Below the pieces are notes generated by a model. That model had not been told where the DNA came from, did not search any database, and saw nothing but the letters and a program-made list of their open reading frames with translations. The translations under genes were made by a program, and so were the position numbers. A stretch of 31,151 bases of DNA from Chthonomonadaceae bacterium (GTDB taxonomy: Bacteria; Armatimonadota; Chthonomonadetes; Chthonomonadales; Chthonomonadaceae): positions 1-31,151 of the forward strand of contig JACMPS010000391.1 of assembly GCA_014377395.1 (NCBI GenBank). Reading direction: 5' to 3'. Each line of letters starts with the position of its first letter. The stretch's first letter is position 1. Positions 8,871-20,150 of this stretch are shown one piece after another.

Positions 8871-8997
8871 TGAGGCGTCTCAATCACAACAGGCGACGCC
8901 CCTACAGTGGACTGAGTGCAGGAATTCTTCCCTTGTTTGTTGAAAAACAATCGTGAAACGCCTCTACTTTCCGCCCCGTAGTCATACCGAACACGCC

Positions 8998-11796
8998 ATG
9001 CTAAACAAAATTCGCCTTGCAACGCTTTCGATACAGGAAAAATACCGAACCGCCACCCGACAACAGAGGCGGCTGTGGCTTGTAACGGCGATCTTTGCGG
9101 CGATGATCCTCTATCGTACCCCCGCACTCAACAAAATGGGGCTTGTGGTTTGGGTAATGGCGAATGGAATTTTTGCTCTTGTGGCAACAATTTGGGGTGC
9201 GTTTCATCCCCGGTGCGTAATCAAGGGCTGGCAAACAGCCACCAAATGGGCTATCGTGGGGGCTTTCGCAACCACGCTGGGCTTGCTTTCCGCCTTCGAT
9301 ACGCTGGTTTCGCAGAACGCGCCCATTCCTTACAGCCTGTTTTTAGTCGGGGTGCTGGTTTTGTTTCCGTTTCTGTGCGGGCTGTTCGCGCTTATCTCCC
9401 TGAGTGGTGCCGCTCTGGGAGCCTATGCGTATCGCCGCCGCCCGGAACTGATCGAAGAAGCCACGCGGTACGGGGTTTCCGTTCATTGGCTTTTGATTGC
9501 AATCACTCTGCCGTTGCTTTTTTTAGTGCATGGTTGGCTTAAACGGCACTTCGGAGAGGCGGTGTCAAGTCGATTTTTCAGCCCTAATTCTCTCACGCCG
9601 CTTTCGTTTCTGGCGGGGGGATTTGCGGTTTTTTCGCTGTTGCTGATCGCCCTCGTTCTCAAGGTGCAAAACGTTCCCTATCCCCTCAGCAAACGGCTTA
9701 GTCGTCGGTGGTCGCGCACCCTTGTCCGCAAGATTACGTTTCGTGGGAAGACGTATTCGGTCAGCCTTCGCGGGGGTTTGCTCGGTGGAATCGCGGCTTT
9801 GTTCATCCTCTCTGCGAGTATGGCGCACCTGCTCGAACCCCTGCAAACAGGCGTACTAACTTCCATGATGAAACTGGCGGACACTTTGCCCCTGAACCGA
9901 AAGACCGGGGCACTCGACGCAAGTTCGCCGAATCCCCCTGCGCCCAACCAACTGCGTTTTGTTGGCGGCGGTAAGGTTCGAAGTACACTTGACGCGAGTT
10001 CGCCGAATTCTCCGGCACCGCTCGTCATTCTGGAAATGGATCGGAGTTTGCGCCGCGAATCTCTGTATCGTCGCGACGAATGTGAGATACAGGGGCGCAT
10101 TATTCGAGAACTGGTCAAGTACGGGGCAAAGCGGATCGTGCTTCCCTTGCCCACGCTTGATATCAAAAACCTGCGTGCAAACGAAAATCGCTTTGAGGCA
10201 ATTCAGTACAAAGAAGCCACCCAACGAGCGAACACCGCACAAAAAGTGGATGCACTCTGCGCCACAATCCGCAAAGCAGGCAATGTGATTGTGGCAATCG
10301 TTCCCAACCGAACACAGCAGGGAACCTCCAAAAGCCTTCATAAATTGACGGCAAACGAGCAAAAGATCGCAGAGGCGGCAAAATCGGTCGTCTCGCTCAC
10401 GCAGGAAACGTTTGGAGCCACCCGCTTGCCCTGCCTGCAAATTGGGCGTAGAGAAGCACTGAATGCCGCCCCCCGTCTTTTTGCGGCACTGACCGATAGT
10501 CCCGATGAGGAACAATCCCTCCCTCTTGAAGACCGTGCCATAATCGCAGGAGCTTCATTCCCGATTGCGGTACAGGGGCGGGTGATCGTGGACTTCGGGG
10601 CAATGGATCTGGAGAAAGACATTCTCCACTTGAGTTACAGTGATATTCAGCACGGCGAAGACCTTTTGCGTCAGGTAGGGGATAAAAAGGAGGGCAAAAA
10701 GGGTGCGGAGTGGGAAACCACCGGGCTTGCGTGTCGGGGAAAGATTGTGTTTCTTGATGCGTTGGTGCGTGATTCACAGGAAACGTTCATGGGCAGAATC
10801 TCCAGTATCGAGGTGATTGCTCACACGACGGAAGCCCTCTACTCGAAGCGCGTCATTGAGCGTTTTTCTCCGGTTCTACTGTTCTTTCTGACGTTGGTAC
10901 TGTGCGTGGTGGGCGGACATTTCACCTACCGCAACAATCCATTCGATGCGGCATGGCGGCTGGCGGCTCCCCTTCTCCCGATTGTCGCCTCCAGTTTTAT
11001 CACGCTTTTGGTGAAAGAGGTGTGGTTCGATCCGGTTCCGCTAATTCTCGGTCTGCTTTTGACTTATGTGTTTGTGGTGCAATCGGGCTACAGTGTAGAG
11101 CGGGATGAGCGGGAACGTAATCGCGCCCTGCTGAAGCGGTTTGTGTCTCCACAGGTGATCGAGAAGTATCTGGACGAGCCGGAGTTGTTGGGACTTGGTG
11201 GGGTGAAGCAACAGGTTTGCGTGATTTTTGTGGATGTGCGGAACTTCACGGGCTTTGCCGAGTCGCGTGATCCGCAGGAAGTCATTTCCGCAATCAACGA
11301 ATATATGGGCGGTCTCACCGTTGCGCTTCGCGCCGGAAACGGGATTCTGGACAAGTATACCGGAGACGGGCTAATGGCGTTTTTCCCGATCAACAGTGAG
11401 GGTCTCACGGCAACCATTCCTCACGCCCTCGGAACCGCAATTGAAATGCAACGCGAAGCCCTCCGTATTTCGGTACGCCGTGCGCGGGAGGGCAAGGCAA
11501 TTTTGCATTTGGGAATCGGGGTGCATTATGGAGAGGCAGTTACGGGGCTAGTCGGAAGTGATGAGCAGTTGAGTTATACGGCAATGGGGCTGACGGTGGT
11601 GGTGAGTGCGCGACTGCAAAGTCTGGCGGGAGGAGGGGAAGTCGTGATGAGCGAAAGTGTCCATGCGGCGGCGGGCGATGCTATTCCCGGCGATGCCACC
11701 ATTCAACTCGGCGAACCGATCAAGGTAAAAGGGGTGACGGAACTGATTGCGCCTTATCGTTTGAGTTTCAATCCGGTGGAACCCTCTGTCGGTTAG
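8998..11796 (+). CDS. Membrane-bound class III adenylate/guanylate cyclase with CHASE2-like sensor domain
   Basis: 'VIFVDVRNFT', 'LDKYTGDGLMAFF', 'GIGVHYGEAVTG', 'ARLQSLAGGGEVVMSE'. CHASE2-like 'SYSDI...GKIVFL...EVIAH' followed by 3 TMs. Start is ATG 8998 or GTG 8953. Confidence 0.88.
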   Translation: MLNKIRLATLSIQEKYRTATRQQRRLWLVTAIFAAMILYRTPALNKMGLVVWVMANGIFALVATIWGAFHPRCVIKGWQTATKWAIVGAFATTLGLLSAFDTLVSQNAPIPYSLFLVGVLVLFPFLCGLFALISLSGAALGAYAYRRRPELIEEATRYGVSVHWLLIAITLPLLFLVHGWLKRHFGEAVSSRFFSPNSLTPLSFLAGGFAVFSLLLIALVLKVQNVPYPLSKRLSRRWSRTLVRKITFRGKTYSVSLRGGLLGGIAALFILSASMAHLLEPLQTGVLTSMMKLADTLPLNRKTGALDASSPNPPAPNQLRFVGGGKVRSTLDASSPNSPAPLVILEMDRSLRRESLYRRDECEIQGRIIRELVKYGAKRIVLPLPTLDIKNLRANENRFEAIQYKEATQRANTAQKVDALCATIRKAGNVIVAIVPNRTQQGTSKSLHKLTANEQKIAEAAKSVVSLTQETFGATRLPCLQIGRREALNAAPRLFAALTDSPDEEQSLPLEDRAIIAGASFPIAVQGRVIVDFGAMDLEKDILHLSYSDIQHGEDLLRQVGDKKEGKKGAEWETTGLACRGKIVFLDALVRDSQETFMGRISSIEVIAHTTEALYSKRVIERFSPVLLFFLTLVLCVVGGHFTYRNNPFDAAWRLAAPLLPIVASSFITLLVKEVWFDPVPLILGLLLTYVFVVQSGYSVERDERERNRALLKRFVSPQVIEKYLDEPELLGLGGVKQQVCVIFVDVRNFTGFAESRDPQEVISAINEYMGGLTVALRAGNGILDKYTGDGLMAFFPINSEGLTATIPHALGTAIEMQREALRISVRRAREGKAILHLGIGVHYGEAVTGLVGSDEQLSYTAMGLTVVVSARLQSLAGGGEVVMSESVHAAAGDAIPGDATIQLGEPIKVKGVTELIAPYRLSFNPVEPSVG

Positions 11797-11847
11797 GGGG
11801 AAACTGGGGAATAAATTTGTGGGCGATAAGGGCGCGAAATGAGTTTA

Positions 11848-11970
11848 CCGGGGAATAAATTCCCCGGCTACACACGAGCGAAGTCCACCTCCGTGGACTG
11901 AGAGGGAAGTTTGCATTGAGTCCACGAAGGTGGACTCCGCGTCTTGAGAGCCGGAGGTTTTAACCTCCGG
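11848..11970. repeat. Inverted REP doublet, family B (REPIN-like)
   Basis: Reverse unit at 11848-11899, 19-nt spacer, forward unit at 11919-11970 with variant second hairpin ccggaggttttaacctccgg. Confidence 0.8.
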
Positions 11971-12023
11971 ACAACCTCCAATCCGGGACGCCAGACAACA
12001 AATTCTCCAACGAAAGAGACCCT

Positions 12024-12596
12024 ATGACTCACATTCCCCCGACAGAAGAGAAGGTTTTTATGACCTCGGCAAAGTGGCGGCAAGAGCGTCCTCATATTCT
12101 GGTTGTCGCCTGTTCCGATGGGCGGTATCAGGAAGCCCTCGACGAGTTTCTACTCAATCATCTGGGCATTGAAGATTATGATCGTCTTTATGCGCCTGGT
12201 GGACCCGGTGCGCTTGTTTCTTCGGCGATCTCCCACTTTCGAGGCGTCCAATTTCAGGATGAAGCAAAATTCTTGCTTGACGCGCATGGGTTGGAGCGCG
12301 TTATTCTGATTGTACATGGGCCCGTTGAGGGAAGCAGACCTTCCGAAGCCCGTTGTGCCGACTACCTGCGGAAGATGCCGGGGAACAGCGTCGGCGAGAT
12401 GCGGCTTCGTCAGGCGGAAGACCTGAGCCGGGTCGCCACACTAATGAAAAGCCATAAGCCTACCGTCAGCCTACAGATTTTCGCGGCGGAGGTGCGTGAG
12501 GACAGACGGGTTCAGTTTGTGCCCGTGCCTGTTCTCTCGGATTATACGTTTCCGTTGTGGGGAAGTGCCGACTTTTTCTCCGGTTTGGATCGCTAG
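12024..12596 (+). CDS. Beta-carbonic-anhydrase-like protein
   Basis: CxDxR motif 'ACSDGRY', 'PGG', then 'VILIVH-x12-CADY'. Start is 12024 or 12060. Confidence 0.6.
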   Translation: MTHIPPTEEKVFMTSAKWRQERPHILVVACSDGRYQEALDEFLLNHLGIEDYDRLYAPGGPGALVSSAISHFRGVQFQDEAKFLLDAHGLERVILIVHGPVEGSRPSEARCADYLRKMPGNSVGEMRLRQAEDLSRVATLMKSHKPTVSLQIFAAEVREDRRVQFVPVPVLSDYTFPLWGSADFFSGLDR

Positions 12597-12628: not shown

Positions 12629-12657
12629 TTGACAAATTGCGATTACGGGAGTAAACT
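12629..12657 (+). promoter_or_regulatory. Sigma70 promoter for the DUF2294-kdp locus
   Basis: TTGACA (12629-12634), 17 nt, TAAACT (12652-12657). Confidence 0.75.
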
Positions 12658-12743
12658 GTCCCTGCAATCAAACAGTGTGGCGACGGTCACAATCTGGAAG
12701 ATGAGCGTAAGGGTCAGCCCGAAACTGTCCAGTGCGCGACTAG

Positions 12744-12810
12744 TCCAGCGTTCACAGAGAGTTCCGCGAGGCGGAAGTGTTTCTGTTGAGACGCTGGATT
12801 TTTTCTTTTC
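12744..12810 (+). terminator. Terminator-like hairpin in leader 1
   Basis: tccagcgt / acgctgga outer stem with inner acagaga/tttctgt and ttccgc/gcggaa stems, followed by ttttttctttt directly before ATG 12814. Confidence 0.65.
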
Positions 12811-12813
12811 ATT

Positions 12814-13242
12814 ATGGAAACAAAGTCCGCAACTCGAATTACGAAAGGCACGATGGAAGCGGAAATTGCCGCCGCCACCGTTCGCACACAGCGCGAACAG
12901 ATCGGACGCGGAGCCACCGATGTACGTGCTTATATCGTCGGGGAAATGGCAATTGTGCGCTGTACCGGCATTCTTACCCCCGCCGAGGCGCACCTTATCG
13001 CTACAGAAGAGGGTTGCAAACTCGTGCAACAATCGCGCACGGAACTGCGCCGTATCATTTGTACCGAAATGGAAACGATGATTGCAGGAATTGTCGGATG
13101 TCGCGTGTTGCGCTCTTATGGAGACGTGAACGCAGAAGCCGGAGAGCTCGTCGAGGTTTACATTTTAGAAACCGATCTTGAAAAGCGGTTGCTCAGGCAG
13201 GACTTAAACCGTCTTAACGGTCTGATGCCTAACATCAAATAA
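12814..13242 (+). CDS. DUF2294 (MpsC-like) domain protein
   Basis: 'TKGTMEAEIA...IGRGATDVRAYIV...GILTPAE...EEG...SRTEL...GCRVLRSYGDV...GELVEVYIL' fits the family pattern. Confidence 0.85.
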   Translation: METKSATRITKGTMEAEIAAATVRTQREQIGRGATDVRAYIVGEMAIVRCTGILTPAEAHLIATEEGCKLVQQSRTELRRIICTEMETMIAGIVGCRVLRSYGDVNAEAGELVEVYILETDLEKRLLRQDLNRLNGLMPNIK

Positions 13243-13303
13243 AAAACTTGGTTGCCGAACACGAGGCATGACCTCCCAAACTGGGAGGCATGAAGCGCAA
13301 TGG

Positions 13304-13377
13304 AGACCGAAAATGCACGGAAAAGTGACTCTACCTTGAGTGACCGAACCCGTCATTTTCGGTCTTTTTTTGTTTTT
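13304..13377 (+). terminator. Intrinsic terminator in leader 2, upstream of the kdp micropeptides
   Basis: 12-bp stem agaccgaaaatg (13304-13315) / cattttcggtct (13354-13365), then tttttttgttttt. Confidence 0.75.
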
Positions 13378-13390
13378 GGAGAAGACAGAA

Positions 13391-13492
13391 ATGGATGCAC
13401 TGATTGGAATTGCTCTTTACATTATTTTACTTGTATTCTATTTCATTCCGGGATACTTCGTTAAGCGTTCCCACAAATCCACAAAGAGGTAA
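13391..13492 (+). CDS. Small membrane peptide (33 aa), MDALIGIALYIILLVFYFIPGYFVKRSHKSTKR
   Basis: GGAG SD at 13378-13381, one hydrophobic helix and a basic tail. Not in the ORF track because it is too short. Confidence 0.55.
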   Translation: MDALIGIALYIILLVFYFIPGYFVKRSHKSTKR

Positions 13493-13495
13493 CTT

Positions 13496-13579
13496 ATGAT
13501 CGACGTACTTTATGTGATCGTCGCCGTTCTCTCGTTTGCCGTTTGCGCCGCCTATGTGCGCGGTTGCGACAAACTTTAA
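13496..13579 (+). CDS. Kdp-associated small membrane peptide (27 aa), MIDVLYVIVAVLSFAVCAAYVRGCDKL
   Basis: AGAGG SD. TM helix ending 'YVRGCDKL', a type of peptide I recognise from upstream of kdpF in other kdp operons. Confidence 0.7.
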   Translation: MIDVLYVIVAVLSFAVCAAYVRGCDKL

Positions 13580-13597
13580 CCCTACAGGAGAACCCCC

Positions 13598-13684
13598 ATG
13601 TTCGAGATGATTCTTGCTATCGCTGTCGCCGTCGGGTTGCTCGTCTACCTGCTCTACGCGATGCTCAAACCGGAGAAGTTCTAA
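13598..13684 (+). CDS. kdpF: K+-transporting ATPase subunit F
   Basis: MFEMILAIAVAVGLLVYLLYAMLKPEKF has the classic 'YL.YA...PEKF' ending. AGGAG SD. Confidence 0.92.
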   Translation: MFEMILAIAVAVGLLVYLLYAMLKPEKF

Positions 13685-13687
13685 CCC

Positions 13688-15541
13688 ATGACAACCAACG
13701 GGCTACTACAAATCGCGCTCTTCTTTATCGTGCTGGTCTTGCTAACAAAGCCGATGGGCGCGTATATGAAAAAAGTTTTCGAGGGAGAAAAGCACACGCT
13801 CTCCTCTCCTCTTGGCTGGCTAGAGCGGATCATCTACCGCGTCTGCGGCATAGATCCCGCTCAGGAGATGCGCTGGACAACCTACGCCTTTGCCCTTCTC
13901 GCATTCAGCGTGGTAGGGATGGTCTTTTCGTATGTCGCGTTACGCGCGCAAAGCCTGTTGCCCTTCAATCCGCAGGGCTTTGGCACAAAGGAAATGGCTC
14001 CCGATCTTGCCTTCAACACCGCCGCTTCCTTTACGACAAATACGAACTGGCAGTCCTATGTCCCGGAAACCACGATGTCGTATTTCTCGCAAATGGTGGC
14101 GTTGGCAATCCATAACTGGATGAGTGCCGCTTCAGGAGCCGCTGTCGCCATTGCCGTTGTGCGTGGCTTCTCACGGCGCGAAGTCAACTCACTCGGCAAC
14201 TTCTGGGCGGACGTTGTGCGCGTCACACTTTATGTTCTCGCGCCGATTTGCCTTGTTTACACACTGTTTCTCGTGGCTTCAGGCGTACCACAGAACTTCT
14301 CGCCCTACGTGAAGGCAACCACGCTGGAGGGAGTGGCACAAACCATTGCAATGGGGCCCGTCGCTTCACAAGAGGCGATCAAAAATCTCGGAACGAACGG
14401 CGGCGGTTTCTTCAATGCAAACGCCGCGCATCCCTTCGAGAACCCGACTCCGCTTGTCAACTTCATTCAGATGTTGTCCATCTTTTTGATCCCGGCGGGC
14501 TTGACCTATACGTTCGGGAAAATGGTAGGTAATGCAAAACAAGGATGGGCAATCTTTGCGGCAATGTCAATCATGTTCTTCGCAGGGGTCGGGGTAGCAT
14601 ACAAATACGAGGCGGCAGGAACTCCTGGACTCGTCAAAGCCGGGGTACAAACCGCCGCCACCGAAACTCAGTCGGGCGGCAACATGGAGGGCAAAGAAAC
14701 CCGTTTCGGGATAGCCAACTCCGCGCTGTTCGCCACCGTCACGACAGATGCTTCTTGCGGAGCCGTCAATGCGATGCACGACTCGTTCACGCCTTTGGGT
14801 GGCCTCGTTCCGCTAATCAATATCATGGCGGGCGAAGTGATCTTTGGAGGTGTGGGGGCGGGACTTTACGGAATTTTGATGTTCGCCGTGATCGCCGTCT
14901 TTATCGCCGGACTTATGGTGGGGAGAACGCCGGAATATCTCGGTAAGAAAATCGAGCAATTCGAGGTGAAAATGGCGATCCTCGCTGTCCTTGTCCTTGA
15001 TGCTTCCATCTTAGGATTCACGATGTTAGGCACTAACCTGAGTTTACCACCCGGTGCCACTTCGCAGACTTTCACAGAGGCACAGGCGGCGGACGAGGCG
15101 AAACTGCCTCCCCTCGCAAAATGGAACCATGTCAACAGCTCTTCACCGAGCAACTACTATGGTGCCACCTATAATAATGTCAACAATAGCGGTGCACACG
15201 GCTTCAGCGAAATTCTCTACGCTTACACGTCGGCGACGGGAAACAACGGCTCCGCCTTCGCCGGAATCACGGCGAACACACCCTACTATAATGTGACCTT
15301 AGGGCTTGCAATGATCATCGGGCGATTCCTGATGATCGTGCCACTGCTCGCAATGGCAGGGAAGCTCGCACAGAAAAAGTTCGTTCCCGCCTCATCGGGA
15401 ACCTTCCCGACGGACAGCGGAACCTTTGTTGTTCTTCTGATCGGAACCGTGATTCTCGTGGGTGCGCTGACCTATTTCCCGGCACTCGCTCTGGGACCCA
15501 TCGTGGAACACTTCCAGATGAACGCGGGGAAGGTGTTTTAA
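13688..15541 (+). CDS. kdpA: K+-transporting ATPase subunit A
   Basis: 'SFTTNTNWQSY', 'LGTNGGGFFNAN', 'SCGAVNAMHDS', 'GNNGSAFAG'. Confidence 0.98.
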   Translation: MTTNGLLQIALFFIVLVLLTKPMGAYMKKVFEGEKHTLSSPLGWLERIIYRVCGIDPAQEMRWTTYAFALLAFSVVGMVFSYVALRAQSLLPFNPQGFGTKEMAPDLAFNTAASFTTNTNWQSYVPETTMSYFSQMVALAIHNWMSAASGAAVAIAVVRGFSRREVNSLGNFWADVVRVTLYVLAPICLVYTLFLVASGVPQNFSPYVKATTLEGVAQTIAMGPVASQEAIKNLGTNGGGFFNANAAHPFENPTPLVNFIQMLSIFLIPAGLTYTFGKMVGNAKQGWAIFAAMSIMFFAGVGVAYKYEAAGTPGLVKAGVQTAATETQSGGNMEGKETRFGIANSALFATVTTDASCGAVNAMHDSFTPLGGLVPLINIMAGEVIFGGVGAGLYGILMFAVIAVFIAGLMVGRTPEYLGKKIEQFEVKMAILAVLVLDASILGFTMLGTNLSLPPGATSQTFTEAQAADEAKLPPLAKWNHVNSSSPSNYYGATYNNVNNSGAHGFSEILYAYTSATGNNGSAFAGITANTPYYNVTLGLAMIIGRFLMIVPLLAMAGKLAQKKFVPASSGTFPTDSGTFVVLLIGTVILVGALTYFPALALGPIVEHFQMNAGKVF

Positions 15542-15552
15542 CCTATACGTTA

Positions 15553-15731
15553 CGCAGGAATGAATTCCGCGCTGGGAGGCTAAAGCCCCGTGTCCTTCGG
15601 ACACCAAAAACGCAGAGAAATGGACAGACGCAGAGCAAAATCCAGACGATAATTCCTGCCGGAAGACGCTATGAAGAGAATAAACAGGCAGTTGTGTCCG
15701 AAGGACACGGGGCGCGGAATTCATTCCTGCG
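15553..15731. repeat. Inverted REP doublet, family A (REPIN-like)
   Basis: Forward copy at 15553-15604 and reverse copy at 15694-15731, flanking an 89-nt spacer. Confidence 0.85.
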
Positions 15732-16064
15732 GTCACTGAAAATGCGGTAATGGCTTCGACAACGGCGGTTGCGGCAGCAATGGCAACAAACTTCCAGGGC
15801 AAATCAGGATAGTCAGGTGCGCTCTGCGGCGGTGAAGTTCCCTCGCAAAACGTTATCAAACACGGCGAAAACTACCTTCCTTCGCACTTGCGGGGCGTCA
15901 CTCTTCACAAAAGGGACATCCCCCCGCACAAAAGAGAACCCTTTCAGGGAGGAAATGTATCCTTCTCTCCGGTGGAAGTCACCAAACTTCCTGTGCGGGG
16001 AACAATCGCGCACCGAAACGATACCGAATCTTCGCGTATCTTCTTATAAATCACAGGCAAAGAG

Positions 16065-18173
16065 ATGTCATTAACACTCAATCAACCCACACAAACGAGC
16101 GATAACAACGCTCCACAGTCACCGAAAAAACAATCAAAGCCGCTTCTCGATCCGGCGATTGTCAAACGCGCCATCAAGGAGTCGTTTATCAAACTCGACC
16201 CGCGAGTCGTGGCAAAAAACCCGGTTATGTTCGTCGTTCTTGTCGGCTCGGTGATGACGACTTACTACTTTATCAAGGCACTGATCGGGCATGAGGGCAA
16301 CGCGCTCTTTGTCGGGCAGGTCTCAATCTGGCTCTGGTTCACCGTTATTTTCGCCAATTTCGCAGAAGCAATGGCGGAAGGACGCGGCAAGGCGCAAGCC
16401 GACTCGCTCCGCAAGGCGAAAACGCAAACCGTCGCCCGGAAACTCGTCAACGGGAAAGAGCAACAGGTTCCCGCGCCTGACTTACGCAAAGGCGACCTCG
16501 TGGTTTGCGAAGTCGGCGACGTAATCCCAAGCGACGGCGAAATCATCGAAGGAATCGCCAGCGTGGACGAATCGGCGATTACCGGGGAGTCAGCACCCGT
16601 CATTCGTGAGAGCGGCGGAGACCGAAGTTCTGTCACAGGCGGCACGAAAGTTCTCTCGGATCGAATCGTGATCCAGATTGCGACCAATCCCGGCGAAAGT
16701 TTTATTGATCGCATGATCGCACTCGTCGAGGGCGCACAACGCCAGAAGACGCCCAACGAAATCGCGCTTTCGATCTTGCTTTCCGGGCTGACGCTTATCT
16801 TTCTGCTTGCCGTTGTGACGCTCTATCCATATGCAGTTTATTCCGTTCGCGCCGCCGGATCGGGCGCACCGCCGAGCATTACGGCATTGATCGCACTTAT
16901 GGTGTGCCTCATTCCTACGACGATTGGCGGACTGCTTTCGGCGATTGGCATTGCGGGCATGGACAGGGTCATGCAACACAATGTTCTCGCCATGTCGGGC
17001 AAAGCGGTAGAGGCGGCGGGTGATGTCAATACCCTTCTCCTCGACAAAACAGGAACGATCACGCTTGGCAACCGACAAGCGACGGAATTTCGCCCGCTTC
17101 CCGGCGTCAATATCGAAGAACTCGCCAATGCCGCGCAACTGTCTTCCCTCTCCGACGAGACCCCGGAAGGGCGTAGCATTGTCATTCTCGCGAAAGAGAA
17201 ATATGGTTTGCGAGGGCGCGAACTCACCGAAGCCGATGCGGAGTTCGTGCCGTTCACTGCACAAACTCGTATGAGCGGCGTCAATGTGGACGGGGTGCAG
17301 GTGCGAAAAGGCGCGGGTGACAATGTAAAACGGTGGGTGGAAGAGCAGGGCGGGCGTATCCCTGCCGAACTCGACCCGATTGTGGAGAGCATTGCAAAAG
17401 TCGGGGGAACTCCGCTTGTCGTCGCGCTCAACAATCAGGTACTCGGCGTCATCTATCTCAAAGACGTCGTAAAAGGCGGGATGCGAGAGCGTTTCGACCA
17501 ACTGCGGGCAATGGGAATCAAGACCGTAATGATTACCGGAGACAACCCTCTCACGGCAAAATCCATTGCGGAAGAGGCGGGCGTAGACGATTTTCTGGCA
17601 CAGGCGACGCCGGAAAACAAAATGGATTTGATTAAAAAGGAGCAGGCGGGCGGGAAACTTGTCGCGATGACCGGAGACGGGACAAATGACGCCCCGGCAC
17701 TCGCGCAAGCGGATGTGGGCGTGGCAATGAACACGGGAACCCAAGCCGCAAAAGAAGCAGGGAACATGATTGACCTCGACTCCAACCCTACCAAGTTGAT
17801 CGAAGTCGTCGAAATTGGCAAGCAACTCCTGATGACTCGCGGAGCGTTGACTACGTTCAGCATCGCTAACGACGTTGCCAAATACTTTGCGATTATCCCT
17901 GCTATGTTCGTCGTCACCTACCCGGAGTTGAACAAACTCAACCTTATGGGCTTGACGAACTCGAACTCAGCGATCCTTGCGGCGGTCATTTTCAATGCCC
18001 TTGTGATCATTGCCTTGATCCCGCTGGCACTGAGAGGGGTCGCGTATCGCCCGATGAATGCCGGGGCGATCCTGCGCCGCAACCTGCTCATCTACGGACT
18101 GGGTGGCGTGCTGATCCCGTTTCCCGCGATCTGGCTCTTAGATAGAATTCTGGTGACGTTGCATCTGGCGTAA
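16065..18173 (+). CDS. kdpB: K+-transporting P-type ATPase subunit B
   Basis: 'TGES', '[11 protein letters not shown]', 'DKTGT', '[18 protein letters not shown]'. Confidence 0.99.
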
Positions 18174-18263
18174 GAGTATTGAGTGTCAAATATTAAGTGT
18201 TGAGAATGAACGAGTGAGTGTTGCAATGAGCGAAGTGGCTTAACACTTGACACTCAACACTTA
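18174..18263. repeat. Inverted heptamer array (YRAGTGT-like) between kdpB and kdpC
   Basis: Left arm gagtattgagtgtcaaatattaagtgttgag. Right arm ttaacacttgacactcaacacttaa. Confidence 0.65.
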
Positions 18264-18284
18264 ATCCTTTGAGGAGATTTTAGA

Positions 18285-18902
18285 ATGTTAAGAGAATTGA
18301 AACCTGCGATTTTGTTAGTTCTGGTGTTTGTTGTCCTCACGGGGATTGCGTTTCCGCTCGTGATGACAGGCGTGTCGAAAGCCATCTTTCCGTCACAAGC
18401 AAACGGTAGTCTGATCGAAAAAGACGGCAAGGTGATCGGCTCTTCGCTGATCGGACAGAATTTCGCCGACCCGAAGTATTTTCACCCGCGCCCCTCCAGT
18501 GCGGGAAGCGGCTATGATGCGGCAAACTCAAGCGGAACGAATTTAGGACCGACTTCCGGTAAACTCATTGACGGAATTCATAAGAAAACTGCCGACGGAA
18601 AAGACGACCCCGGCAACTTCGACGGTCTTGTTGATCTTGCCGCCGCGTATCGTAAGGAAAACGGCTTAGCCGAAAACACGCCCGTTCCCGCCGATGCCGT
18701 CACGCGCTCAGGCTCCGGTCTCGACCCGGAAATCTCTCCTGCCAACGCAGAATTGCAGGTGGCGCGTGTGGCAAAAGCACGAAGCCTAAGCGTAGACGCC
18801 GTGAAGAAACTCGTCACTGAGAACACGGCGGGACGTACCCTGGGCGTTCTCGGCGAACCCCGCGTGAACGTGCTGAAACTTAATCTGGCTCTGGACAAGT
18901 AA
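18285..18902 (+). CDS. kdpC: K+-transporting ATPase subunit C
   Basis: 'FPSQANGSL', 'YFHPRPS', 'DAVTRSGSGLDPEIS', 'EPRVNVLKLNLALD'. Confidence 0.98.
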   Translation: MLRELKPAILLVLVFVVLTGIAFPLVMTGVSKAIFPSQANGSLIEKDGKVIGSSLIGQNFADPKYFHPRPSSAGSGYDAANSSGTNLGPTSGKLIDGIHKKTADGKDDPGNFDGLVDLAAAYRKENGLAENTPVPADAVTRSGSGLDPEISPANAELQVARVAKARSLSVDAVKKLVTENTAGRTLGVLGEPRVNVLKLNLALDK

Positions 18903-18995
18903 CCTAACCCCCCCCCGCCCCCTTCCCTGTGAGCGTAGCGAACGTATAAGGGCGGAAACCGAAGGTTTGATGGATGGAGGGGCGGGGGGTTAGGT
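18902..18995. repeat. C-run/G-run inverted repeat (family C) between kdpC and kdpD
   Basis: acctaa-c9-g-cccc ... ggggc-g6-ttaggt. Confidence 0.65.
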
Positions 18996-19010
18996 CAAAA
19001 GGGAGTTCCC

Positions 19011-20150
19011 ATGCCTGAAACAAATAAGCCGACGCCGGAAGAGTTGCTGGCGCGGGTCAACAAAGCCGAACGACGTGAGAACCGGGGAAGACTGAAAGTC
19101 TTTCTCGGTTTTGCGGCGGGTGTCGGTAAAACTTTCGAGATGCTGAATGAAGCGAGCCGCCGCAAACAACGCGGGCAGGATGTGGTGATTGGTTGGGTGG
19201 TGACGCACGGACGTAAAGGCACGGAGTCGCAACTCGGTGATCTGGAAGTCGTGCCACGCAAACAGGTGGAGTATCGCGGTACGGTTTTCGAGGAAATGGA
19301 CACCGAGGCGATCTTAGCGAGAAAGCCGATGTGGGTGATCGTAGACGAACTCGCGCACACGAATGTGCCGGGTTCCATTCGCGGAAAGCGGTGGCAGGAC
19401 ATCGAACTCTTGCTCGATGCAAAAATCAACGTTCTGACTACGATGAACGTTCAACACCTTGAAAGCCTCAACGATACGATTGCCGATATTACTGGGGTAC
19501 GTGTGCGAGAAACTGTCCCGGATCACATTCTTACCGAAGCCGAAGAGGTGAAAATGGTGGACATCACTGCCCGTGCCCTCATTCATCGCCTTGAGCGAGG
19601 CGACATTTACGCCGCCGACAAAGTGCCTTCCGCCCTTGAAAACTGGTTTCGGGAAGGCAACCTGAACGCTTTGCGCGAGATCGCCCTGCGGGAAATCGCA
19701 CAGGAGGTAGACAGTGACGTTTCGGAGTATCGCAAAGACAAACACATCACGGAAAATTGGGCGACGCACGACAGAATTCTCGTTTGTATCTCGCCGTCTC
19801 GCTCATCGCTTCGATTGCTGAGACGCGGCTGGCGAATTTCACAGCGACTGAAGGGCGAAATCGTGGCACTCTATGTGCAGGACAAACCCTGCACGGAAGC
19901 GCACAAAGCAATCCTGGAAAAAGATTTCGCAATGGCGTCGCAACTGCATATTCCGCTTGTCAAAGTCGAGGGGAACGTGGCGGATGAAATTATTCGGTAT
20001 GCACGAGAAAACCGCATCACGGAAATCGTCATCGGTCACTCAAAGCGCAGTTCTTTGCAGGAGTTTGTACGAGGCTCGATCATTAACGCTCTGACGAAAA
20101 ATTTGCGTGATGTGGATATTTTGCTCGTTGCGGGTGAAGAAGAGAATTGA
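19011..20150 (+). CDS. kdpD: KdpD N-terminal sensor + Usp domain only (no TM, no histidine kinase)
   Basis: 'GRLKVFLGFAAGVGKTFEML', 'VDELAHTN', 'NVQHLESLN', 'FREGNLNALRE', then a Usp domain and stop at 379 aa. Confidence 0.92.
   Translation: MPETNKPTPEELLARVNKAERRENRGRLKVFLGFAAGVGKTFEMLNEASRRKQRGQDVVIGWVVTHGRKGTESQLGDLEVVPRKQVEYRGTVFEEMDTEAILARKPMWVIVDELAHTNVPGSIRGKRWQDIELLLDAKINVLTTMNVQHLESLNDTIADITGVRVRETVPDHILTEAEEVKMVDITARALIHRLERGDIYAADKVPSALENWFREGNLNALREIALREIAQEVDSDVSEYRKDKHITENWATHDRILVCISPSRSSLRLLRRGWRISQRLKGEIVALYVQDKPCTEAHKAILEKDFAMASQLHIPLVKVEGNVADEIIRYARENRITEIVIGHSKRSSLQEFVRGSIINALTKNLRDVDILLVAGEEEN

Follow-up and report, generated by a model that had tools for sequence, protein, structure and literature searches.

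The locus

The stretch of DNA analysed here (the window, 31,151 nucleotides) comes from a MAG of the phylum Armatimonadota, and every feature given below with window coordinates lies on its + strand. Consensus scanning together with Pfam and NCBIfam assignments places, in order, a class III cyclase gene, a carbonic-anhydrase-like gene, a promoter-like site at 12629, Leader 1, mpsC, Leader 2 and the kdp genes. The promoter-like site is of the sigma-70 type, TTGACA-17-TAAACT (12629-12657), and is the likely start of a transcript covering Leader 1, mpsC, Leader 2 and kdp; relatives carry strong extended -10 promoters at the equivalent site 5' of Leader 1. The mpsC gene (12814-13242; DUF2294, PF10057, Pfam E = 9e-31) encodes a protein of 142 aa that we consider a candidate trans-acting regulator. 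Beyond Leader 2 come three small membrane-peptide ORFs (13392-13685), of 33 aa, of 27 aa ending in YVRGCDKL and, last, the 28-aa KdpF, followed by kdpA, kdpB, kdpC and a kinase-less kdpD (13688-20150; Pfam, and NCBIfam NF038185, a KdpD-like non-kinase sensor), the genes that would be under leader control. In relatives the YVRGCDKL-type peptide is conserved, as is KdpF. In the sequence, the first of these ORFs begins only 15 nt beyond the Leader 2 U tract, a gap too short for a promoter, and therefore kdp transcription must pass through the Leader 2 terminator. As read from the sequence, the operon order is promoter, Leader 1, mpsC, Leader 2, kdp.

Architecture of Leader 2

Leader 2, an element of what we call the L2 type, occupies 13245-13376 and is recognised as a whole by covariance model R1 with 59.4 bits and E = 1.6e-12 (this and the other covariance-model E-values are rough, the models having been calibrated short); its parts can be followed in alignments A2 and A4 and in the predicted fold. 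It opens with a head, UUGGUUGCC (13249-13257), the 5' strand of the antiterminator helix P1, whose partner at 13302-13310 is indicated by covariation in A4. J1, CGAGG (13262-13266; consensus CGAAGG in A4), supplies the GA that pairs with the UC of J2 to form P1b, and the A4 alignment and pair counts give a conserved A.G/G.R loop after P1b. The P2 hairpin, CAUGACCUCCCA/UGGGAGGCAUG (13267-13292, from the fold), varies in sequence and length among relatives and has two-sided changes at 7/7 pairs in the A4 counts. J2, AAGCGCAAU (13293-13301; consensus nGUCGCAGg in A2 and A4), leads into the shared strand GGAGACCGAAAAUG (13302-13315), which serves P1 as its 3' strand and the terminator as its 5' arm. 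The fold continues with P3, a variable upper terminator hairpin (13316-13352), and with the terminator 3' arm CAUUUUCGGUCU and a U7-G-U5 tract (13353-13377). The 13302-13366 stem followed directly by U7 has the form of an intrinsic (Rho-independent) terminator, and the 153-nt intergenic region folds at -60.2 kcal/mol (z = -6.5 vs shuffles).

Across relatives, the L2 consensus runs CCGGUUGCC, N4-5, CGAAGG, a variable hairpin, nGUCGCAGg, GGAGGCCGGAAG, a second variable hairpin, CUUCCGGCCUCC and a U run. The window copy, with UUGGUUGCC, CGAGG, AAGCGCAAU and GGAGACCGAAAAUG, is a divergent member of this type.

The original prediction had read the region as a switch built from duplicated arms. The repeats lie exactly where it placed them, gaggcatga at 13263-13271 and 13285-13293 and gaccgaa at 13305-13311 and 13342-13348, and the terminator 3' arm ttcggtc (13358-13364) can indeed pair with either gaccgaa copy. 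The two pairings that it proposed for cctc(cca) fared differently: cctccca at 13272-13278 is complementary to tgggagg at 13282-13288, but the upstream gagg/cctc mini-hairpin has no comparative support. As the basis of a switch between duplicated gaggcatga arms, with a long and a short terminator, the repeats have to be abandoned, for they do not exceed chance and lack conservation. When the 141-nt region was simulated with a first-order Markov model, 10% of runs contained a direct repeat of at least 9 nt and 68% one of at least 7 nt. The gaggcatga 9-mer recurs because the conserved junction GAGG abuts a P2 stem with a chance palindromic CAUG, and the second gaccgaa copy is present in 1 of 45 homologous leaders, namely the window alone.

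This second GACCGAA, which is held within P3, gives the window copy a peculiarity of its own. With P1 formed, it can still make a 7-bp hairpin with the 3' arm (13342-13364) before the U run, a short hairpin that could stop transcription while P1 is clamped, and read-through may therefore be less efficient here than in relatives.

Conservation of the element

A BLAST-type DNA search with the leader found no match in 40 relatives, because the element is too divergent at the DNA level. Homologues were first reached via the kdpA loci of 60 relatives, whose upstream regions were read, and the motif was present 5' of kdp in about 25 of 29 relative loci. Model R1, which represents the OFF state (P1b, P2 and the terminator), has matches in 20 of the 151 Armatimonadota genomes sampled, spread over 8 families and with two to three copies in some genomes; of the 78 metagenome contigs from a pattern scan, 14 carry full-length R1 matches, 16 in all. 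When one genome per species was scanned for the exact pattern over 185,579 species, a kind of scan that favours consensus-like copies, 26 loci were returned, of which 13 are true and all of these in the Armatimonadota; the other 13, in Binatia, Streptomyces and others, were rejected as coding-sequence coincidences. In family f2 the leader lies about 20 nt 3' of its own sigma-70 promoter.

No family of Rfam 15 matched anywhere in the window at the gathering threshold, the Na+ (DUF1646), Li+ (nhaA-I), RAT-like and ANTAR-target families included, and relaxing the threshold to E <= 10 over 13150-13700 gave just two chance-level matches, MALAT1 and sR17. The literature that we searched, including a 224-motif survey, a 50-genome survey and a 2025 review of RNA-binding antiterminators, holds no description of the leader. 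The broader claim of the original prediction, an attenuator of riboswitch-like or protein-binding nature and of no known class, 5' of kdp and linked to DUF2294, is thus borne out: the element is conserved, absent from Rfam and able to adopt mutually exclusive folds supported by covariation. Of the checks that it had proposed, the two computational ones point the same way, the Rfam search agreeing with an unassigned class and the search for homologues of the core motif having found them, upstream of kdp and DUF2294-linked, through the kdpA loci and the covariance model. On this comparative evidence Leader 2 is a genuine conserved regulatory RNA, and apparently an undescribed one.

Two exclusive folds

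The central observation is that the head GGUUGCC pairs with the terminator 5' arm GGAGRCC. In the window this joins U13249-C13257 to G13302-A13310, the first nine bases of the arm, and constitutes P1. The helix was counted on A4 (45 sequences), and the test is not circular because the A4 model treats the head as unpaired and holds no P1. Over the whole 5' hairpin (P1, P1b and P2), 83% of cells in A4 are standard pairs, vs 29-46% with the partner slid; P1 alone is 81% paired. Within P1, G-C is exchanged for A-U at two positions, U.G for C-G or U-A at a third and C-G for U-A at a fourth, and all 45 sequences have G.A or A.G at the centre of the helix, with G13255 facing A13304 in the window, a mismatch flanked by U.G or U-A pairs. 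Since the 5' arm also pairs with the 3' arm of the terminator, these changes have to be compensated three ways, and such three-way compensation is seen in four leaders (L006, L008, L024 and L081). Inside P1, the GA of J1 and the UC of J2 form the short helix P1b, which extends further with covariation. Invariance is confined to the P1 core (G.A/U.G) and the A.G/G.R loop; the remainder is helix or variable. The original prediction had placed a possible effector site at the segment entering the terminator 5' arm, which comes close to these data, but it missed the actual signal, the pairing of 13249-13257 with 13302-13310.

Energetics distinguish the nascent from the complete RNA. When the nascent 5' domain is folded, the lowest-energy structure contains P1 in 42 of 45 sequences. 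For the full leader, the terminator conformer is favoured in all 45, by 14.6 kcal/mol on average, and it is the minimum-energy fold in 43 of them. The full-length terminator being far more stable, the default should be termination, and an effector would therefore have to stabilise the 5' hairpin for read-through, which makes the element an ON switch. Inspection of A4 and A6 for an alternative head partner that would give OFF logic revealed no conserved complement.

Two other structural ideas were considered and set aside: a K+-dependent G-quadruplex, for which the extra GG tracts outside the 5' arm are not conserved in the alignment, and a kink-turn at the G.A sites, for which, by reasoning only, the strand pattern is unfit.

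We suggest the following mechanism. As the RNA emerges, the head (13249-13257) and GGAGACCGA (13302-13310) would close the irregular hairpin P1/P1b/P2. If this hairpin is left unheld, the terminator 3' arm (13353-13366) would oust the head, and RNA polymerase would stop at the U tract, 15 nt 5' of the first ORF. An effector that clamps the 5' hairpin would instead let polymerase read through into kdpFABC, turning K+ uptake on. All support for the switch is comparative and thermodynamic. The antiterminator/terminator architecture, its covariation and energetics and the K+-uptake regulon described below are seen directly in these data, and it is the identity of the effector that we infer.

Leader 1, a sister subtype

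Leader 1 (12691-12809), a divergent copy of what we call the L1 type, is included in alignment A6, and its fold shows a terminator. Its head CUGGAAGAU lies at 12694-12702 and its 5' arm (arm5) CUAGUCCAG at 12740-12748; the terminator hairpin spans about 12742-12799 and has a U run after it. Elements of this type, which share their architecture with L2, are found 5' of mpsC in many relatives, and their consensus runs CUGGUUGAC, N4, GCAAGGGG, a hairpin, GGUGC-nUUU, GUAGGCCAGCAUCC, a hairpin, GGAUGCUGGCC and a U run. P1 and P1b of the L1 type are 85% paired, vs at most 55% when slid, with compensatory changes and with the invariant G.A kept; Leader 1 of the window itself has a compensatory change from U.G to A-U.

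Model R1 detects the L1 type weakly (E = 1e-5 to 7e-3). A dedicated model, R2, scores Leader 1 at 70.5 bits, Leader 1 being one of its training sequences, and finds the L1 type in 12 of 151 genomes with 14 matches, most of them immediately 5' of mpsC. An exception is G022, in which a duplicated promoter and leader precede an inserted vapBC-like pair. Families f2, f3, f6 and f13 have L2 and no L1. The full order of L1, mpsC, L2 and kdp is also present in G004, a 3.4-Mb genome in a single contig. By the same mechanism as that proposed for Leader 2, Leader 1 would gate mpsC, so that kdp expression would depend on two read-throughs.

There are also two orphan L1-like copies that are not followed by mpsC, one in the window's own genome (contig C304 of G000) and one in G007. 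We counted these against MpsC as the effector.

A regulon of K+ uptake

The genes downstream of the leader are mostly kdpF-kdpA, at about 19 of 22 phylum loci and 9 of 16 metagenome matches. The main exception is an APC-family permease whose sole PDB match is the K+ transporter KimA (6S3K, E = 1e-99 to 1e-103); such KimA-like permeases follow the leader at L061 (the same locus as L114), L069 and L110, and the last of these contigs has the order leader, kimA, mpsC, leader, kdp. That two unrelated high-affinity K+ importers lie behind one RNA class establishes a function in K+ uptake. At rare loci the leader is followed instead by a GlnX-family membrane sensor (L047), a GreA-like gene (L154) or ORFs without assignment; two post-leader ORFs, at L081 (405 aa) and L095 (439 aa), are mutually unrelated and have no Pfam or NCBIfam match.

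In Firmicutes, kdp and kimA are controlled by a c-di-AMP riboswitch (PMC6488665). A diadenylate cyclase (DAC domain) is encoded in 5 of 5 family genomes examined here, and the ydaO-class riboswitch RF00379 was found in 0 of these 5, with the B. subtilis control detected; in the window RF00379 has no match at the gathering threshold, and none at E <= 10 over 13150-13700.

The leader in Planctomycetota

PF10057 is present in 24 of 301 sampled Planctomycetota genomes. In a small set of 12 fetched loci, aligned by eye and with a simple script, an unannotated leader lies beside mpsC in 7 or 8, mostly just 3' of mpsC and after sigma-70-like promoter hexamers. This leader shares the GGGG-hairpin arrangement, has a terminator and keeps P1 in the same register, GGCAGAU/AUAGGCC, with the pairs G-C, G-C, C-G, A.G, G.A, A-U and U-A. 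Folding gives the same two states, head with arm5 in the nascent domain and terminator in the full RNA. Model R2 makes weak full-length matches to four of these leaders (E about 1e-3), and Rfam gave no match at E <= 0.1 in 10 Planctomycetota loci.

The genes 3' of mpsC here are different: PEP carboxykinase (PEPCK, two loci), argininosuccinate synthase (ArgG), a NuoL/MpsA-like subunit, DUF4914 and a second mpsC, and the leader was located in all of those loci except the NuoL/MpsA-like one. Since mpsC lies upstream of the leader, with promoter hexamers between them, it appears to be outside leader control. A conserved neighbour that is outside leader control, combined with a regulon that changes from phylum to phylum, is the pattern expected of a regulator and its binding site, and it is hard to reconcile with one small ligand.

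MpsC as candidate effector, and the alternatives

We propose that the effector is MpsC, which would act on the leader as an RNA-binding antiterminator, in the manner of LicT/BglG on RAT or of HutP, and would be active when K+ is scarce. We give this reading a probability of about 0.5. All 20 RNA-positive genomes have mpsC, vs 34 of 151 genomes overall, and the per-family counts are identical; mpsC is directly 5' of the leader in about 19 of 22 phylum-sample loci and 9 of 16 metagenome matches, whether the target is kdp or kimA. A regulator gene near its leader is a mark of protein-dependent antitermination, and the candidate mpsC shows both co-occurrence and adjacency, the latter in Planctomycetota as well. 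In two genomes (G025 and G115) mpsC is not leader-adjacent, yet it is present elsewhere in the genome, and G084 has one mpsC and two leader-controlled operons. The mpsC gene is itself preceded by a related leader, of the L1 type. Genomes within one phylum are not independent samples, and for this reason the co-occurrence of RNA and mpsC could partly reflect operon inheritance.

The RNA and the protein family contribute further arguments. The leader forms an extended hairpin in which few unpaired bases are conserved, and this resembles a typical protein-binding site more than a pocket for a ligand. At 50% identity the DUF2294 domain falls into 627 sequence clusters, and B. subtilis YbcI and the MpsC of S. 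aureus belong to it. REC-MpsC fusions (one cluster with 69 members) and WYL-MpsC fusions exist, which implies that the MpsC domain can be an output module, as ANTAR is. When a REC-MpsC protein was used as a query in Planctomycetota, the matches were swamped by receiver domains. The AlphaFold model of MpsC (pLDDT 95.7) has the order alpha-beta-beta-alpha-alpha-beta-beta-alpha. It has no sequence match in the PDB and no Foldseek match there at E <= 0.001, its best VIA match (Z 7.1) is at background, and the CAT, ANTAR, HutP and PyrR folds are absent from its structural matches (Foldseek against the PDB, VIA run wide). Bet3/V4R-like and S6-like folds were considered for MpsC and dropped as background similarity only, and a search of the ESM Atlas by features returned nothing. 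The lack of a match to a known antiterminator fold and the slightly acidic pI (about 6) count against MpsC as the effector, and so do several divergent copies of PF10057 in families f8 and f19 that have no detectable leader, as well as the leaderless kdp operon of G171 described below.

The most serious competitor to MpsC is a true riboswitch, in which a small ligand or ion at the G.A/U.G core and A.G loop stabilises P1 and turns K+ uptake on, with Na+ or a low-K+ metabolite as the signal and mpsC merely regulated. The architecture matches ON riboswitches in that the terminator takes its 5' arm from the 3' strand of P1, and the three-way pairing constraint explains much of the sequence conservation in P1 with no need for a protein. 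The kdp/kimA regulon is that of the c-di-AMP riboswitch in Firmicutes, in a family whose genomes encode the DAC domain and lack the ydaO class; the ON logic, however, is wrong for a K+ or c-di-AMP ligand. Na+ would fit it, and the Na+ (DUF1646 motif) and Li+ (nhaA-I) riboswitches, which sense monovalent cations and act as validated ON switches of ion-transport and related genes, are precedents for simple hairpin-type RNAs that can sense ions (PMC9337991, PMC9646797). Few conserved unpaired nucleotides are available for a pocket, which is compatible with an ion site but atypical of metabolite aptamers. The subtypes are also split by target, L1 before mpsC and L2 before transporters. Planctomycetota speak against a riboswitch in two ways: mpsC stays adjacent there even though it is apparently outside leader control, and PEPCK, ArgG, MpsA-like proteins and DUF4914 share no obvious ligand with K+ pumps. 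Taken together, we regard a riboswitch as unlikely, although it is the alternative to which we give most weight.

Improbable to a further degree is that some other trans-acting factor clamps the hairpin while MpsC has a different K+-related role. The N-terminal sensor of the kinase-less KdpD, which is present in all kdp loci examined, would be the natural suspect, but it occurs equally in genomes with and without the RNA and so does not track the leader, and the kimA and Planctomycetota targets have a leader and a nearby mpsC with no kdpD. A singleton fusion of MpsC to a KdpD N-terminal domain hints at interplay between the two, but its only source is one contig of 2.1 kb, and it could be artefactual. 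G171, in which a weak MpsC-like gene lies directly 5' of kdp together with KdpE-box-like repeats and no leader, would also suit such a role for MpsC. Hardly any weight attaches to the view that the hairpin is an unregulated terminator ending the mpsC transcript, with kdp served by its own promoter, or that the duplicated arms are the switch after all. A strong hairpin and U tract do come straight after the mpsC stop codon, and the repeats do exist. However, the 15 nt between U tract and first ORF are too few, the pairing of head with arm5 is conserved with compensatory changes, and in family f2 and before kimA the element acts as a primary 5' leader with a promoter of its own; the repeats, for their part, are at chance level and unique to the window.

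Returning to MpsC, a wider reading can be offered tentatively, with a chance slightly short of even. DUF2294/MpsC would be a new family of RNA-binding antiterminators, the fourth beside CAT/PRD, ANTAR and HutP, either stand-alone or receiver-fused, with the G.A-core hairpin of head and arm5 as its cognate RNA. The pair would form a portable module present in at least two phyla. In the Armatimonadota it would replace KdpD-KdpE signalling for the K+ pump and control KimA as well, and in Planctomycetota it would control carbon/CO2-related genes such as those for PEPCK and MpsA.

Significance and comparison with known systems

How Kdp can be controlled with a kinase-less KdpD and no KdpE would receive a concrete answer from two serial attenuators, and one that applies to a whole phylum. 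The leader adds a conserved, structured and clearly covarying RNA class that is contained neither in Rfam 15 nor in the literature searched on riboswitch candidates and antiterminators, and the proposal is a first functional hypothesis for DUF2294/MpsC; if it is true, a new family joins the few RNA-binding antiterminators. Should the protein hypothesis fail, the leader would be an orphan riboswitch whose regulon points to a K+-status signal, and the literature searched describes no riboswitch for such a signal. Because no Rfam family fits, and because no similarity of MpsC to CAT, ANTAR, HutP or PyrR was seen, we consider the system a new class within a known kind of mechanism.

Among ion-sensing RNAs, the Na+ and Li+ riboswitch classes have, to our knowledge, no obligatory neighbouring protein gene, and they differ from the leader in their conserved core, no Rfam match to them being found here. 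The c-di-AMP riboswitch (ydaO/kimA, RF00379) resembles the leader in its kdp/kimA regulon, in transcription attenuation and in its occurrence in bacteria that make c-di-AMP (PMC6488665). This resemblance is functional only, for the pseudo-twofold seven-helix architecture is absent here, and the ligand turns expression off there whereas the effector would turn it on here.

In gene layout, the nearest parallels are hutP-terminator-hutH and leader-pyrR-attenuator-pyrP-attenuator-pyrB, where, as here, a regulator gene comes first and a conditional terminator precedes the structural genes; PyrR is closer still in having a further related attenuator before the regulator gene. The target of HutP is single-stranded RNA with NAG repeats, and PyrR acts by stabilising an anti-antiterminator and thus follows OFF logic. 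In contrast, the conserved element of the leader is a double-stranded irregular helix with ON logic, and MpsC has no fold match to either protein. The ANTAR response regulators (REC-ANTAR: EutV, AmiR and NasT) are similar in the fusion of REC to a candidate RNA-binding domain, in the coexistence of stand-alone and fused forms and in regulons that differ by lineage. However, ANTAR binds dual hexaloop hairpins, and the MpsC domain, whose RNA binding is putative, is an alpha-beta-beta duplication and not the helical ANTAR fold.

The RAT/CAT systems (BglG, LicT, SacY and GlcT) remain for comparison. In sequence the leader does not resemble RAT, the locus encodes no CAT/PRD protein, the predicted fold of DUF2294 is unrelated, and the targets are ion transporters rather than sugar PTS genes. 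In its working parts the likeness is nevertheless plain: RAT is an imperfect hairpin with conserved internal loops that overlaps the 5' part of a terminator, and the protein bound to it prevents termination (PMC12591593); the hairpin of Leader 2 overlaps the 5' part of its terminator in the same way, and in both systems the gene of the known or proposed regulator often adjoins the target leader.

Results and Discussion

Leader 1 (window 12691-12809) lies ahead of mpsC, the DUF2294 gene whose product is a candidate RNA-binding antiterminator. It carries the head CUGGAAGAU, which is the 5' strand of the antiterminator helix P1, the arm5 segment CUAGUCCAG, comprising the P1 3' strand and the terminator 5' arm, and a terminator plus U6. 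Leader 1 is a divergent member of a sister subtype within the same RNA class as Leader 2. Therefore, two serial attenuators precede kdp. At relatives' loci L011, L013 and L017, the extended -10 of the operon promoter upstream of Leader 1, TGGTAGACT, is similar to the leader head TGGTTGAC, which sits about 20 nt 3' of it. This likeness may be a coincidence or the trace of a duplication.

A second L1-type element was seen in the window's own genome, scoring 72.5 bits with R2, the covariance model for this type (L177:1501-1615, corresponding to G000 contig C304:9371-9485). It is intergenic, flanked by two minus-strand genes and without a plus-strand gene downstream, and may be an orphan copy, the remnant of such an element, or else a small RNA that acts independently. 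Genome G022 (contig C4; L180:1501-2371 and L183) has a near-exact duplication of the promoter plus L1 leader. There, an inserted AF2212-like/PIN pair (vapBC-like) is now driven by the first promoter and leader copy, immediately 5' of the promoter-L1-mpsC-L2-kdp array.

Unannotated leaders also flank mpsC at Planctomycetota loci (L197, L198, L200, L201, L205, L206 and L207), with which a locus from Armatimonadota family f19 was grouped (L088:4525-4614). These leaders have sigma-70-like promoter hexamers on their 5' side, share the head/arm5 register of the window's class, and possess a terminator. The genes 3' of mpsC at the Planctomycetota leader loci are PEPCK, argininosuccinate synthase, DUF4914 and a second mpsC. 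At L202, where a NuoL/MpsA-like gene is 3' of mpsC, a leader was sought and none was located.

Just 5' of the operon, the window at 8953-12596 encodes a class III adenylate/guanylate cyclase of 947 aa and, with a weak match to Pro_CA_2, a carbonic-anhydrase-like protein. Because of these neighbors, and because CO2-related genes adjoin mpsC in Planctomycetota, there is a hint that MpsC signaling may be linked to inorganic carbon as well as to K+. MpsC is also found in fusions (P0091, P0111, P0087, P0146 and P0037) with REC-MpsC, WYL-MpsC, tandem MpsC and MpsC-KdpD(N-terminal) architectures; the last is a singleton from a 2.1-kb contig and may be an artefact.

A conserved peptide of roughly 27 aa, with (A)YVRGCDKL at its C-terminus, is encoded between the leader and kdpF in the window (13497-13580) and in nearly all relatives (kdp loci L003-L031). 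An extra, non-conserved small membrane ORF often lies on its 5' side. Repeats have been inserted in the kdp operons of relatives, between kdpF and kdpA or 5' of kdpF: tandem CAACTAT-type repeats (L005), GAGATCAC repeats (L011), a REP-like palindrome (L012) and, in L015, a stretch of about 60 nt that is present in duplicate.

Directly 5' of kdpF-kdpA at L091 (G171:C1, about 363453-363767 and downstream) lies a weak MpsC-like gene, and the leader is absent. Repeats of TTCTTTAT occur here and at L028, where a gene for an OmpR-type regulator is found further 5'. The repeat sequences suggest KdpE-type promoter control, which, if true, would represent an alternative regulatory solution inside Armatimonadota.
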